A stretch of 64,000 nt of DNA, from NCBI GenBank assembly GCA_963675765.1, contig OY776568.1, positions 347,558-411,557 on the forward strand, given 5' to 3'. Of the stretch, positions 5,043 to 59,577 are shown piece by piece. The notes under the pieces were generated by a model. The model did not search any database and was not told where the DNA came from. It worked only from the letters and a program-made list of their open reading frames with translations. The position numbers were made by a program, and so were the translations under genes. The stretch comes from Phycisphaerae bacterium (GTDB taxonomy: Bacteria > Planctomycetota > Phycisphaerae > UBA1845). Within the stretch, counting starts at the first letter, position 1. Each line of letters opens with the position of its first letter.

Positions 5043-5136
5043 TATAGCGTCACTAATCCAAGTGTAGCGTCAAACACCCGAAACCTACCGGAGAAAACAG
5101 GCATGCAGCTGCTACACTCGGATAGACCTTGCTCTA
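5043..5136 (+). mobile_element. 94-bp MITE copy 1 (IS630-related)
   Basis: Runs TATAGC...GCTCTA with 26-bp imperfect TIRs (TATAGCGTCACTAATCCAAGTGTAGC / revcomp TAGAGCAAGGTCTATCCGAGTGTAGC). It aligns with copies at 17414, 46489, 46710, 58725 and 59483. Confidence 0.75.
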
Positions 5137-5308
5137 GCCGCCAGTGTAACAATGTTCCCTACCCGATTCACCCAAGTGGTTATTCAGCCGTCGCCGTGCA
5201 GCCGCAGGTCACCGTGGAGAAACTGGCAACGTACGGAATTCCAGCCCCCACTCCTTCCCGTCTTCTGCTTCCGCCTTGACCAACATTCATGCGCTGCCAC
5301 GAAAGAAA

Positions 5309-5348
5309 AACCCACCTTGCTCGCAAGTCTGGACGAGCAAGGTGGGTT
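5309..5348. repeat. REP-like or terminator hairpin, copy 1 of the CCCRCCTTG...CAAGGYGGG family
   Basis: Perfect 15-bp inverted repeat AACCCACCTTGCTCG / CGAGCAAGGTGGGTT with a 10-nt loop, followed by a T-tract on the minus strand. Confidence 0.7.
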
Positions 5349-5442
5349 ACCTAGAGTAGTTGAAGCTGTGCCGCGAGGAAGTCGGCAGAAAGCTTGAGAA
5401 TTCAACTAGCCACGTCCCCATACTAAACCCCTGTTTGATTTC

Positions 5443-5958
5443 TCACCAACTTCCACGCTTCCAGTCTTTTGATCGCCACGTGTTCTGAATATCCTTGGAT
5501 TGGTATTTCACGCCACACTCAGGACACACATGCTCTTCGGGCAAGTTCCACAAATCATAACCGCAATTGAGGCATACGGTTATATCTGCTGACTTCGCAT
5601 TCCGTAAGATTTTAGCTGCGCGGTATCTCAAAGACAGATAAATAATGATTAGTACGCTGGGTACAAGGGAATTGAATATTAAGGCTTGCGGGTAAAATGA
5701 CGCCAGTGTTCCAGCCAGTCCGGATCTACAATCCGACAGATAAAGCACGAGAATAGTTAACGCGCTCAACCATGTGACATATAAACAAATCCAACATAAT
5801 CGGCTAATCCGTATATGCCTACGCACAATCCTTGGGAAGTTGCCTATGCCTCTCAACAGCTTTCCTCCATAGGTGAGCTCGGGGAACACTTTTCCCAACC
5901 CATTTGCGTGCACTGTGCCTACTCTTGAGAGGTCGTATCCGTACGCAGCCGTAAACAC
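5443..5958 (-). CDS. 2-TM membrane protein with C-terminal zinc ribbon (start uncertain)
   Basis: TM helices followed by CLNCGYDLWNLPEEHVCPECG. Confidence 0.8.
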   Translation of the reverse strand: MFTAAYGYDLSRVGTVHANGLGKVFPELTYGGKLLRGIGNFPRIVRRHIRISRLCWICLYVTWLSALTILVLYLSDCRSGLAGTLASFYPQALIFNSLVPSVLIIIYLSLRYRAAKILRNAKSADITVCLNCGYDLWNLPEEHVCPECGVKYQSKDIQNTWRSKDWKRGSW

Positions 5959-6165
5959 TGGAACGCTAACAGCCGATACTACCCCACCTCAAGCTTATCT
6001 AGAGCAGTCCTTGACTACCGAAGCATGGGAGATTACCTCCACACCGCAAGATGGCCAGGAACGTCACCGTTCGCCGAGTAGTCCCCAAATCAATCTTGGC
6101 CACTCCTCCCCTGCATCCGTCTGCGTCACATCGCCCCCACCCAACCCGGTCACACAACATCATGC

Positions 6166-6738
6166 TCAGGAACTCTCGTCCCTCTGATCGAGGTCACGTT
6201 TGTCAATGGGTATGACTACGCACCGGAACTCGATCTCATTCAACGGGAGACCACAGGCGGACAGCTTGAGCCACTCTACAGGGAAAGGCCATCCACATTC
6301 GGGACAGCGCGCTCTTCCCGAAACACCCACAAGTGAGTACCCACACTTGCCACACTTGAGGTCCGGCAGAATACGCTTCTGCCAGTCCAATGGAATTACC
6401 TGCGAAAACCGCAGAGAAGTGGCTCTTCCGCAAACAGAGCATACTAGCACACTAATCGGCATATACCGATACAGTGCGTGGACGACCAGCACGCCCACAG
6501 CGAGACCAACCACCTTCGCAACCCCCAAGGAAACCTGCGATGCAACCTGCTCACGTACAATCCACACAAATGGAATACTCAACAGGCAAATGAGCAAACA
6601 CAACACCACCAACACCCAATGTACCCGGCACTTTGATTTAAAGATCCTGTACATTCCCAGTGCCACCCTACCAGGCGAATTGCACTTCGCGCAACAAGAA
6701 TGAACGAGCACTCTCTTCATTGCCAACCTCTTCCACAA
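6166..6738 (-). CDS. 2-TM membrane protein with zinc ribbon(s)
   Basis: CGKCGYSLVGVSGRARCPECG, plus extra CAKC and CSVC pairs, flanking two TM helices. Confidence 0.8.
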   Translation of the reverse strand: MWKRLAMKRVLVHSCCAKCNSPGRVALGMYRIFKSKCRVHWVLVVLCLLICLLSIPFVWIVREQVASQVSLGVAKVVGLAVGVLVVHALYRYMPISVLVCSVCGRATSLRFSQVIPLDWQKRILPDLKCGKCGYSLVGVSGRARCPECGWPFPVEWLKLSACGLPLNEIEFRCVVIPIDKRDLDQRDESS

Positions 6739-7120
6739 TACCTTTTCGTGGACCGAACAATCATCACGCCAACGTGCACAGTAGTAACATGCCCATGTGC
6801 TCAGCGTCCGTTCAGTTCCCTAAGAATCAATAGCACTCCGTTTCTTCACCGTGTGGCTTTGCTTGCCTCCGCATGTCTCCATGAAGAAGGGCAACACCGG
6901 AGCGTAGCGACCTTCTCGCACACGGTATGCCCTCTTCAATCTAGAAACTCTCACCGCAACAGCCGAATTGGATCCTCTCATCAAGATGCACCAAAGTCGT
7001 GACTTGCTATTCGTAACCGGTGCTTCGCATCCATCTCCGCCGCGGGCGAAACATTCCATTGTCGACGCGATTGCTCCATCGCAGTAACAACCGACGACTA
7101 TCTCCTTCTGCAATACATCA

Positions 7121-7159
7121 GCCCGCCTTGCATGCTGGAAGCCGGCAAACAAGGCGGGT
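7121..7159. repeat. REP-like hairpin, copy 2
   Basis: GCCCGCCTTG...CAAGGCGGGT, with the same stem as the hairpins at 5309 and 12495; about 33 bp downstream of 7192..7530. Confidence 0.65.
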
Positions 7160-58141: not shown

Positions 58142-58246
58142 TTAACCAGGCTAGCAACAACCTCATTCACAAAAGCGAAACTGCCGTTATCATGAGTTGG
58201 AGGCGGAGAAGTGTTCCCGCCGCAGCACGCATTGGAGAGGTATATC

Positions 58247-58453
58247 ATGGCCCCAAGATCAGGTGGACAGGACGAACGTTATCAGAAGCGCCAGCAGCGA
58301 GAGGAAGAATACCGCAAGCAGCTTCCAGGAGCCGATGACGAGCCGCTCCCCCCTCCGGCGGAGACTATTCATTCAGACGGCAAACCGAAACGAAACGATC
58401 CCTGCCCCTGCGGCAGTGGCAAGAAGTTCAAGCAGTGCTGCATTAACAAGTAA
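58247..58453 (+). CDS. Stand-alone SEC-C metal-binding motif protein
   Basis: [17 protein letters not shown]. Confidence 0.85.
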
Positions 58454-58724
58454 GTAGTGACTTGCAGGATGGCCCGATAACCCCGAGTCGCTGCTGAGCG
58501 TACAACTGCGCCACAGACCGCCCACCTGTCGACGACTTGGGGAAATAAGAGAGTTGTTCTCTCCGAGCGTAACGTCAAGCAATGAGAATACATCTGAGAC
58601 CGCCGGTGTTCAGACGCTGCACTTGAGTTGGCGCACGATCCGGTCCGCTGCAGACACCTGCAGCTCCTCCCTTTGCACCGATTTCCTCATGGCAATCGGT
58701 TCTCGCGGCAGCTACAATGAAGCT

Positions 58725-58818
58725 TGGGGTGAGGATAGTCTGAACGTAGCGTTCATTGCTGCAAGCCCGCACAAAAGAGACAGCGGCTAAACGTTATGCT
58801 TGGATCAAGCTTGCTCCA
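58725..58818 (+). mobile_element. MITE copy (degenerate left end)
   Basis: Inner motif AACGTAGCGT; right-arm revcomp TGGAGCAAGCTTGATCCAAGCATAAC; 94-bp spacing conserved. Confidence 0.55.
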
Positions 58819-58887
58819 GATACGTATTGGCACTAGTTCCCACATTGTGTTACTTCAGGATGTGGGGCAAACGCAGATCAGTGGAGT

Positions 58888-59448
58888 GTGTCGCTCTTGA
58901 TACGCCCAAAAGATCTAGACGTCTCGGTCAAGCTTCCGAGGAGAATGTGTGCTCCTACGACCGTCACGTATAGCTGCCCTGCTCTTGTAGGAGTAGTCTG
59001 CGGCGTACTCGCGGCCTCTGGCCTTGCGGGCATAGCTGTAAGCACTTGCCCTGAGCTAAGTAGAACCACACTGGCCGACTCTTCACTTCAAGACCTCTGC
59101 AATGGGGTGGGCTTGTCGATTGTCTGTGGTGCATTAGTGATCGGGTTGCTGGCCTCCTGGTATGCCGCCTGTCGCAATAGAGATGCCGGCAAGATCAGGT
59201 GCGGCCACTGCAGCTACGAGCTCCGAGGCCTGACCAAGCCACGCTGTCCGGAATGCGGAACGGGGTTTGACCGCCGTTGGCTTACTACTACGGGGTTTCC
59301 GTCCAACACAGATGACCATGGCTACAGCTTGAGCGAATACGAACGATTCAAGCCAGATGAAAATGGAGAACGCTTGCCGCAGCGACTCACTGAGCGAATC
59401 TCTGCAACACCTCTCTTTAGCTCTTCGAACAGAAGGGATGCTTTCTGA
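58888..59448 (+). CDS. 2-TM membrane protein with zinc ribbon (sixth family member)
   Basis: Two TM helices followed by CGHCSYELRGLTKPRCPECG. Confidence 0.8.
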   Translation: MSLLIRPKDLDVSVKLPRRMCAPTTVTYSCPALVGVVCGVLAASGLAGIAVSTCPELSRTTLADSSLQDLCNGVGLSIVCGALVIGLLASWYAACRNRDAGKIRCGHCSYELRGLTKPRCPECGTGFDRRWLTTTGFPSNTDDHGYSLSEYERFKPDENGERLPQRLTERISATPLFSSSNRRDAF

Positions 59449-59482
59449 TTAGCTTAGTCACCAACAACCTTCTTCCCTTCGC

Positions 59483-59577
59483 TATAGCGCTACCGACCCA
59501 AACGTAGCGTCCAGTTCAGAGAACCTACCCGGAGGAAACCGGGCGTCAGACGCTACAATTGAATTGAGGTTGCTCTA
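59483..59577 (+). mobile_element. 95-bp MITE copy
   Basis: TATAGCGCTACCGACCCAAACGTAGC ... revcomp TAGAGCAACCTCAATTCAATTGTAGC. Confidence 0.75.

Follow-up and report, generated by a model that had tools for sequence, protein, structure and literature searches.

The dispersed 94 bp repeats described here are best read, at a probability that we put near 75%, as an IS630/Tc1-mariner-type MITE mobilised in trans by a transposase most likely of the resident IS630's own lineage. The window, by which is meant the whole 64,000 nt stretch analysed, spans forward-strand positions 347,558 to 411,557 of contig OY776568.1 (assembly GCA_963675765.1) from Phycisphaerae bacterium (Planctomycetota; Phycisphaerae; UBA1845), and genome-wide counts refer to the full 5.45 Mb.

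The repeat family and its copies

The genome-wide search asked for by the earlier note found many further TA-bounded copies, with nhmmer giving 859 hits (E<0.01); 807 remain once redundancy is removed, 385 are full length, and such a copy number is far beyond chance. The modal length of the hits is 94 nt, and the family makes up ~1.4% of the chromosome at roughly one copy per 6.7 kb, marking most intergenic neighbourhoods. It has no coding capacity, and 90% of copies overlap called genes by <10%, this and the other gene-context counts being approximate because gene positions came from a crude home-made ORF caller. The consensus, TATAGCGTTGTAAGTCCAAGCGTAGCGTCAAACACCGAGAATCTACCGGAGAAAACCGGGGTTCAGACGCTACACTTGAATAGAGCTTGCTCTA, bears out the form first described, with an outer TA(G/T)AGC, GTAGC at positions 22-26 and a CTACCGGAGAAAAC core. 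The TIRs are imperfect, the two arms being identical at 16 of 26 positions and different at 10, and both contain the outer TA(G/T)AGC and an inner CAAG(C/T)GTAGCGTC, with GTAGCGTC about 21 nt inside each end; the centre is an asymmetric, A/C-rich 36 nt. Folded, either strand gives a long hairpin, at -29 kcal/mol (top) and -36 kcal/mol (bottom). Selection for this hairpin was considered and the evidence from compensatory pairs is not convincing, as 186 were observed in the stem versus 157 expected, which is no clear excess, and the 3:1 excess of A.C over G.T among top-strand mismatches fits a mutational bias. An Rfam search gave no family match, and no promoter or terminator pattern tied to the copies was found.

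Most copies are old and located in intergenic spacers. Identity to the consensus averages 80% and reaches 94% at most, and the copies decay, at 67-89% identity, as neutral DNA does. One pair of copies whose flanks differ has 98.9% identity, and the few young pairs suggest activity up to fairly recent times.

Within the window the six copies originally listed are real, aligning mutually and scoring 27-80 bits against the family profile, but the list was incomplete, the window holding ten copies and one end remnant. Three of the six are full length with TA at both ends, namely 5043..5136 (+; flanks c..g, 75.6 bits over model positions 2-93, ends ttgtac-TATAGCG...GCTCTA-gccgcc), 17414..17507 (+; flanks c..a, 64.8 bits) and 59483..59577 (+; flanks c..a, 66.8 bits, ends cttcgc-TATAGCG...GCTCTA-agccaa). 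The copy at 17414..17507 is 100% identical to that at genome 3624384, the flanks also being identical, and the two are a segmental duplicate. The top score in the window, 79.7 bits, belongs to 46489..46581 (-), and 46710..46801 (-; 61.7 bits, repeat family D10) lies 221 bp from it in the same orientation; a gene at 45409-46074 stands beside MITE copies. The sixth, at 58725..58818 (+; 27.0 bits, seen in the alignment), is diverged. The additional copies are a degenerate one at 25084..25167 (-; 20.8 bits, E 0.0013, repeat family D12), one at 42403..42497 (-; 46.7 bits, repeat families D8/I1 and alignment) in which both terminal TAs are mutated (TG...CA), a degenerate one at 45238..45326 (-; 33.8 bits, model 12-92, repeat family D8 and alignment) and a partial or degenerate one at 58548..58641 (+; 42.0 bits, model 13-81). 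The remnant, ~35 nt of a right end at 44770..44805 (-), comes directly after the resident IS630, which sits exactly at the terminal TA of the remnant, where TA followed by AAGCAAGCTCTATTC is the MITE right end in reverse complement.

Insertion at TA

Directly beyond TA...TA the conservation of the family falls to background level. The left TA is preceded by C in 58% of cases and by T in 34%, the right TA is followed by G in 64% and by A in 21%, and Y..R flanks occur in 105 of the 129 full copies with both TAs intact (81%). A check for empty sites found three independent cases, all paralogous and within the genome, each with a single dinucleotide (TA, TA and TG) where the filled site has TA-element-TA, the inserted unit being the whole 92 bp plus one TA. 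One case is an IS66-family element with the MITE inside it, present in 12 copies and reading gagggagcgtTA[MITE]TAgggtttt, while a further, diverged copy of the IS66-family element at genome 1488169-1488309 is without the MITE and reads gagggagcgtTAgggtttt. The filled site at genome 3416724 has two empty paralogues with a single TA each, and that at genome 1704452 has four, with one dinucleotide (TG). These sites show that the MITE inserts at TA, usually in a C/T-TA-G/A context, and duplicates the TA, and together with the Y-TA...TA-R flanks they bear out the earlier note in calling the repeat a non-autonomous TA-flanked MITE. To our knowledge in-genome empty sites are rarely to hand for bacterial MITEs.

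The 94-bp length and the Y..R flanks (5' C17/T10/A2; 3' G22/A4/T2/C1) are preserved in sister subfamilies from two other genera and 53 metagenome contigs, with Y-TA...TA-R in at least 90% of metagenome copies. Neither the length nor a 17-nt right end, GAATAGAGCTTGCTCTA, varies among three genera and several metagenomes. No MITE copies were found in a same-genus relative genome.

The resident IS630 and a proposed mechanism of mobilisation

The resident IS630-family insertion sequence is 1042 bp long (43728..44769, -), and its two ends, the TIRs, each occur once and where they had been placed, at 43728-43753 (+) and 44744-44769 (-). Its orfA (44341-44739, -) and orfB (43736-44311, -) match DDE_3 (2.8e-33) and IS630-type HTH domains, and a -1 slip site near 44350-44360 (T TTA AAA AAA G) joins them into a fused OrfAB of 319 aa, whose match to NF033545 runs from end to end (195.9 bits). 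The genome contains 12 full-length copies, 99.4-100% identical, and they represent its only intact IS630-type/DDE_3 transposase family. The flanks of the window copy read c-TA...TA-a, and all 12 copies show C/T-TA...TA-G/A flanks, equal to the MITE target signature. In two of the 12 the insertion point is the terminal TA of a MITE, and in a third it is a TA within a MITE right end. As MITE right junctions make up ~8% of all CTAG sites, these cases are not clearly more than expected, and the idea that the IS630 has a particular affinity for MITE ends was set aside.

The MITE ends match the resident IS630 ends at 15-18 of 26 positions and differ at 8-11, the two IS ends matching each other at 19 of 26, and shuffling gives P = 3e-5 (right end) and P = 1e-3 (left end). 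Over positions 7-26 the match to the resident IS630 is 10-12 of 20 as against 2-9 of 20 for three related IS630s, which have in common with the MITE only the TA(G/T)AGC terminus. The specific relation of the MITE ends to those of the resident element, as earlier proposed, thus holds against the related IS630s. In the sister subfamilies left TIRs are up to 21/28 identical to the IS630 left end, the 12-mer CACGTGTAGCGT included.

Elements of the Tc1/mariner/IS630 group take TA as their only target and duplicate it, and for ISY100 transposition 30 bp of each end are enough (PMC2170065). The assignment of RUP to IS630-Spn1 was made by the same two criteria as used here, TIR likeness and TA insertion (PMC2229807). 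An IS630-family DDE transposase supplied in trans would bind both MITE ends through N-terminal helix-turn-helix domains, excise the MITE and insert it at another TA. Such a transposase would most probably come from the lineage of the resident 1042-bp IS630, as the product of the -1 frameshift joining orfA and orfB. Mobilisation by this particular resident transposase is likely on indirect evidence, namely that its family is the only intact one of the IS630 type in the genome and has the same target signature, the TIR match being moderate. The MITE copies are far older than the resident IS630 copies, and their mean identity of 80%, set against 99.4-100% for the IS, indicates that most MITE expansion predates the present IS burst. 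Among 79 loci with IS630 relatives (46-61% amino-acid identity) the MITE was found in none, and so co-occurrence across species could not be shown; no transposase homologues were found on the 53 MITE-bearing metagenome contigs.

Orientation and GC skew

The orientation of the MITE follows the local GC skew, being 83-97% predictable from it and 97% at an absolute skew of at least 0.2, in skew domains of 5-10 kb, and the 13 young IS630 copies show no such lock. No such lock is predicted by a simple, symmetric cut-and-paste reaction aimed at TA; it escaped the earlier note, and it is a real additional property outside what the transposition mechanism explains. A number of causes can be set aside. 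Neither replichore (129:147 versus 193:187) nor the strand of the neighbouring genes (++ 93:103, -- 85:74) has an effect, and within 300 bp downstream of genes there is a modest preference for the orientation of the gene (217 same versus 123 opposite, an approximate count). An artefact of strand-biased transitions on a palindrome is rejected because many transversions, as well as the asymmetric centre, separate the two orientations. The MITEs do not themselves create the skew domains, similarly strong ones existing >20 kb from any copy, and a faster decay of discordant copies does not fit, these being commoner among the high-scoring (young) copies and not among the low-scoring ones.

For some DDE insertion sequences, among them IS630 on certain chromosomes, a non-random orientation relative to GC skew has been described, and interaction with the beta sliding clamp is the proposed cause (PMC3971601). 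That survey concerned full-length IS and replichore, whereas here it is a MITE and 5-10 kb skew domains, and the effect is absent from the 13 IS copies. A tentative reading, which we regard as rather doubtful, is that this IS630/Tc1-mariner-type MITE was inserted, or kept, in whichever direction the replication fork dictated, the MITEs and the GC3-skew domains together recording past fork direction. If that were true, the mismatch with the present replichores would mean that inversions or replacements of 10-30 kb segments have affected about half the chromosome.

Alternative explanations

The MITE may be of the IS630 type and still have been moved by a different IS630 relative, now lost or located elsewhere, in which case the likeness of the ends would reflect TIR ancestry within the clade and not a working pair. 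The TA(G/T)AGC terminus is common to all the IS630 relatives examined in a Phycisphaeraceae MAG, the left TIR of the MITE in this genome matches the IS630 at only 15-16 of 26 positions, the family is much older than the present IS630 copies, and related MITE subfamilies occur in genomes or contigs where no copy of the resident IS630 was seen. All the same we think this unlikely, as the inner part of the TIR is nearer to the resident IS630 than to other members of the clade, the sister subfamilies have a 12-mer in common with the resident left end, no other intact IS630-type transposase is present in the genome, and the 98.9% identical pair with different flanks implies that some movement was fairly recent.

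Two further readings dispense with an IS630 transposase altogether. In one the repeat is a REPIN-like doublet of GTAG-containing REP units, mobilised single-stranded on the lagging-strand template by a RAYT-like Y1 (HUH) transposase, and indeed each arm contains GTAGCGTC, the fold is a long hairpin, the tie of orientation to local strand composition is what single-strand mechanisms would lead one to expect, and the genome has one Y1_Tnp gene (3490749-3491469). REP units are each headed by a GTAG-type tetranucleotide, make no target duplication, and flank the RAYT gene to which they belong. Here the TA duplications already weaken such an account, with TA on both sides of the element, a whole unit inserted and a single dinucleotide at the three empty sites; GTAG lies 21 nt inside the MITE ends, at the distance found in IS630 TIRs and not at the head of a REP unit, and the flank signature is that of the IS630 copies. 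The Y1 gene product scores above the Pfam Y1_Tnp cut-off but, at 68.7 bits against REP_Tyr_transpos NF047646, falls under the cut-off of 80 bits for that family, and its gene is not flanked by the MITE, the nearest copy being 3.2 kb away where mean spacing is ~6.7 kb. Orientation is moreover unrelated to present replichore, and this account seems very improbable. Even less credible is the reading of the repeat as an immobile structured RNA or regulatory motif, under host selection and spread by recombination or duplication, for which the invariant length and right end across genera and metagenomes and the same-orientation preference downstream of genes might speak. The TA-duplicating empty sites, including the insertion inside the IS66 element, argue against it, as do stem compensatory changes that are in no clear excess, the lack of an Rfam match or of a promoter or terminator pattern in the searches made, and decay of the copies like that of neutral DNA.

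Relation to known systems and significance

For the IS630-type MITE favoured here the closest known system is RUP/IS630-Spn1 of Streptococcus pneumoniae. Both repeats are ~100 bp, non-coding, intergenic and inserted at TA, both are also found inserted in other IS elements (IS66-family for this MITE), and in both the TIRs resemble an IS630-family element of the same genome, the transposase being assigned on indirect criteria (PMC2229807). RUP differs in having 108 copies as compared with ~810 and in being highly conserved where the copies here are mostly old; there is no sequence relationship, the phylum is different, and RUP is not reported to have its orientation locked to local GC skew. Correia/NEMIS of Neisseria resembles this MITE in its terminal TA, TA duplication, TIRs of ~24-26 bp, size of ~100-155 bp, hundreds of copies and long stem-loop transcripts (PMC2229807). 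It has no assigned transposase, in contrast to the candidate IS630 in the same genome here, its sequence is unrelated to the MITE consensus, and no IHF site or promoter was seen at the MITE copies. ISY100 (IS630 family, Synechocystis) serves as a model of the mechanism, since its transposase alone cuts out and inserts any DNA flanked by ~24-30 bp ends, exclusively at TA and with duplication of the TA (PMC2170065), although the mini-elements used were laboratory constructs with near-identical ends and this MITE is a natural element with ends unlike those of the IS at 8-11 of 26 positions. With REP/REPIN it has in common an abundant ~100 bp intergenic hairpin repeat, GTAG-containing arms, a RAYT-like gene and a strand-biased orientation, and it is set apart by TA duplication, the internal position of GTAG and a RAYT-like gene that lacks flanking repeats and scores under the family cut-off.

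Literature and Rfam searches gave no description of this family, in keeping with the earlier view of it as an undescribed element, and no Planctomycetota MITE was found in the literature searched. The family is new; its kind, an IS630-type MITE, is familiar. It adds to the Planctomycetota a well-supported pairing of a MITE with an IS630, backed by in-genome empty sites, and the exact 94-bp length and invariant 17-nt right end make it a convenient target for studies of transposase-end recognition and for strain typing. The orientation lock is also relevant to the odd mosaic GC skew found in this Phycisphaerae genome, and a lock that arose by fork-coupled insertion or by strand-specific purging would be a novelty within the Tc1/mariner/IS630 superfamily. 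Were the fork-directed reading true, it would be the first strand-polar behaviour of a TA-duplicating cut-and-paste element, and MITE orientation would provide a ready-made marker of the history of chromosome rearrangement.

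Copies in the window and across the genome

The six copies of the MITE (a dispersed 94-bp non-coding repeat with TA ends) listed in the earlier note can be aligned to each other along some 94 nt, and a search profile built from them, with one iteration, finds many further copies, giving 859 matches in the 5.45-Mb single-contig genome; these include 807 non-redundant matches, 656 scoring 35 bits or more and 385 full-length ones. Ten copies fall within the window, five in the orientation of the profile (the model strand) at 5043-5136, 17414-17507, 58548-58641, 58725-58818 and 59483-59577, and five inverted at 25084-25167, 42403-42497, 45238-45326, 46489-46581 and 46710-46801, with a right-end remnant of around 35 nt starting from 44770. 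No Rfam family matches anywhere in the window. The copy at 17414-17507 is, together with its flanks, 100% identical to a reverse-oriented second locus at genome position 3624384, and this pair reflects segmental duplication, probably as part of the Rhs-type cassette region, so that the copy did not insert independently. Between 58548 and 59577 three direct-orientation copies bracket a small gene (58888-59448); the outer ends of this arrangement would be one left and one right, and joint mobilisation is conceivable.

The consensus is TATAGCGTTGTAAGTCCAAGCGTAGCGTCAAACACCGAGAATCTACCGGAGAAAACCGGGGTTCAGACGCTACACTTGAATAGAGCTTGCTCTA, and conservation is at background level directly beyond the terminal TAs. 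Directly 5' of the left TA, C makes up 58% and T 34% of the bases in full copies, with G at 64% and A at 21% directly 3' of the right TA. A pyrimidine on the left and a purine on the right flank 105 of the 129 full copies that retain both TAs. The arms, described from sequence inspection as imperfect 26-bp inverted repeats, are indeed so, being identical at only 16 of 26 positions and having in common an outer TA(G/T)AGC and an inner CAAG(C/T)GTAGCGTC motif. A 14-nt palindrome, TAGAGCTTGCTCTA, lies within the right end. RNA folding energies are −29.0 kcal/mol for the top strand (z = −3.0) and −36.0 kcal/mol for the bottom strand (z = −4.6). Compensatory double changes among 378 distinct full copies are barely in excess (186 vs 157 expected), and top-strand A.C mismatches (bottom-strand G.T) outnumber the reverse kind 3:1, an excess which fits strand-biased transitions in copies with an orientation locked to skew and so is not taken as a sign of hairpin selection. 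Neither promoter-like nor terminator-like patterns were found tied to the copies.

With a crude home-made ORF caller, by which 83% of the genome is called coding, 90% of copies overlap called genes by less than 10%, convergent spacers hold 28% of copies as against 16% of all spacers, and copies lying up to 300 bp downstream of a gene run in its direction in 217 cases and opposite to it in 123.

Insertion with TA duplication

Joining both flanks of every copy and seeking the joined sequence in the genome recovered three independent paralogous empty sites. The first involves an element of the IS66 family (about 2.65 kb, with a TnpC-like ORF of 541 aa), present in at least eight copies of 98-99% identity (genome 4599246-4601894 and at least seven other places), which has the MITE near one end and provides the flanks common to twelve MITE copies. 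The filled site reads ...gagggagcgtTA[element]TAgggtttt... and the empty one, in a diverged copy at genome 1488169-1488309 that lacks the MITE, reads ...gagggagcgtTAgggtttt..., and so entry of the MITE into a master IS66 copy preceded the spread of that IS. The MITE at genome 3416724 has two paralogues with a single TA at the site, and that at 1704452 has four paralogues with one dinucleotide (TG) there. These three sites prove insertion of the MITE with TA duplication, and it follows that what moves is a 92-bp unit to which a duplicated TA is added.

The bulk of this movement is not recent. Full copies have a mean identity of 80% to the consensus (5-95% range 67-89%, maximum 94%), placing most of the expansion far earlier than the current IS burst. 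When copies with different flanks are paired with their nearest neighbours, the closest pair (genome 4593402 vs 1485161) is 98.9% identical and several others are at 95-97%, and hence some movement has been fairly recent.

The resident IS630 and its relation to the MITE

The two IS ends reported from inspection of the sequence each occur once, at 43728 and 44769, and bound a 1042-bp element on the minus strand whose ORFs match DDE_3 and IS630-type HTH domains. No other DDE_3 family is intact in the genome, where this IS has 12 full copies (99.4-100% identity), one split copy and fragments; the genome also contains several IS families beyond IS630 and IS66. The overlap of orfA with orfB in the resident IS630 falls on the slippery run T TTA AAA AAA G (44341-44360, minus strand), and the −1 slip product of 319 aa matches the IS630 transposase model NF033545 from position 2 to 298 of 299 with 195.9 bits. 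This split looks like programmed frameshifting or transcriptional slippage and not a defect, and as it is kept in all 13 copies the frameshifted product is probably the normal route to the transposase.

The base 5' of the left TA of the IS is C in ten copies and T in two, and that 3' of the right TA is G in seven and A in five, a flank signature that is the same as that of the MITE. In two cases, that of the window included, the IS is inserted exactly at the TA that closes a MITE on its right side, and a third IS copy lies at a TA inside a right end. CTAG is 3.5-fold under-represented in the genome (5927 observed vs about 20850 expected) and a sizeable share of its sites are MITE right junctions, and so the IS insertions at MITEs fit a shared target preference with no need for a special affinity.

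Over 26 positions anchored at the termini and without gaps, agreement with the two IS ends is 18 and 17 positions for the MITE right end and 15 and 16 for its left end, and 19 between the IS ends themselves; with shuffled MITE ends P = 3e-5 for the right and 1e-3 for the left. A Phycisphaeraceae MAG contains three related IS630 families, of 55-61% amino-acid identity, that have the same TA(G/T)AGC terminus and C/T-TA flanks, and at the inner positions they match the MITE at 2-9 of 20 as against 10-12 of 20 for the resident IS. The earlier note had also set the inner motif at the same spacing in MITE and IS, and this is borne out, as GTAG stands at an equal distance from the end in both, 21 nt inside the mobile unit. 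Such an end distance speaks against the repeats being elements of the REPIN/RAYT type, a reading which we regard as very improbable and for which the genome does offer one Y1 transposase gene, a single-copy RAYT-like gene at 3490749-3491469, outside the window. However, with 68.7 bits that gene stays under the cut-off of 80 of NF047646, the model for REP-associated tyrosine transposases, and is flanked neither by the MITE nor by repeats of any obvious family, and the TA duplications at the empty sites are not expected from a Y1 single-strand mechanism.

Relatives and metagenomes

No copies were found in a same-genus genome. Another genus of the family gave around 195 first-look candidates and a third genus two matches; aligned examples from both these other genera have the same length, termini and C/T...G/A flanks as here. 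Scanning metagenomes with an exact pattern of 23 specified bases of the right arm gave 53 contigs, and 24 of the 29 elements with a placeable left end are exactly 94 bp long (5' flank C17/T10/A2; 3' flank G22/A4/T2/C1). Several of their left terminal inverted repeat variants, such as TAGAGCGTTCGCAATCCACGTGTAGCGTCA, are identical to the left end of the resident IS at 21 of 28 positions and have the 12-mer CACGTGTAGCGT in common with the IS copy in the window. No transposase genes were found on these 53 short contigs, and the MITE is present in none of 79 loci with IS630 relatives in other species.

Orientation and local GC skew

MITE orientation tracks GC skew over the 0.2-10 kb around each copy (computed after masking all copies), with the model strand being the one locally rich in C. 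An overall concordance of 70% rises to 88% where |skew| ≥ 0.1 and to 97% where |skew| ≥ 0.2, and the link is gone at 30 kb and beyond. Copies of like orientation come in runs (182 observed vs 329 expected, z = −11.5). The present replichore bears no relation to orientation (129:147 and 193:187), and the strand of neighbouring genes, taken alone, is likewise unrelated. The switch point within each replichore is displaced by about 0.077 towards the mean of that replichore, and a logistic model with two variables gives the right orientation in 83% of cases.

Skew at third codon positions correlates from one gene to the next (r = 0.67 on the same strand, r = 0.55 otherwise) and is anticorrelated once genes are about 12 apart. 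The GC3-skew domains span some 5-10 genes each and are indifferent to gene orientation; beneath them lies a weaker replichore signal with an origin-like minimum at 2.49 Mb and a maximum at 5.37 Mb. Domains more than 20 kb from any MITE are about as strong as those near copies, and the domains are a property of the genome. A 505-aa ORF resembling an IS4/IS1634-type DDE transposase (genome 3810470-3811987, outside the window) lies in a strongly skewed region. Oriented around the copies, the skew profile has about the same shape on both sides, with a reversal of sign at a distance of 15-35 kb.

Concordance is 76% in the youngest copies vs 86-88% in older ones, no orientation lock is seen in the 13 young IS copies, and the metagenome contigs display the same trend weakly (23 of 32 at |skew| ≥ 0.05, P = 0.02). 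Orientation bias relative to GC skew has been described in several DDE IS families, with IS630 mixed, and an interaction with the beta-clamp proposed (PMC3971601). With several trivial explanations rejected, fork-coupled oriented insertion or orientation-dependent loss, together with later inversion or replacement of chromosome segments, remain the candidates for the lock.

Relation to known elements

The closest known case is RUP with IS630-Spn1, and RUP, like the MITE here, inserts into other IS elements (PMC2229807). RUP was assigned to IS630-Spn1 on two indirect criteria, the same as for the MITE here, namely terminal inverted repeat similarity and TA targets (PMC2229807). Work on ISY100 shows that the transposase of an IS630-family element by itself transfers any DNA bounded by about 30 bp of each end, into TA targets exclusively (PMC2170065). 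Correia/NEMIS elements are similar in form but are without an assigned transposase. In keeping with the view that the family is undescribed, full-text literature searches returned no described MITE for Phycisphaerae or Planctomycetes, and a large MITE census preprint leaves the phylum unmentioned. The skew-locked orientation is an unexplained extra trait beyond what is otherwise a familiar kind of element.
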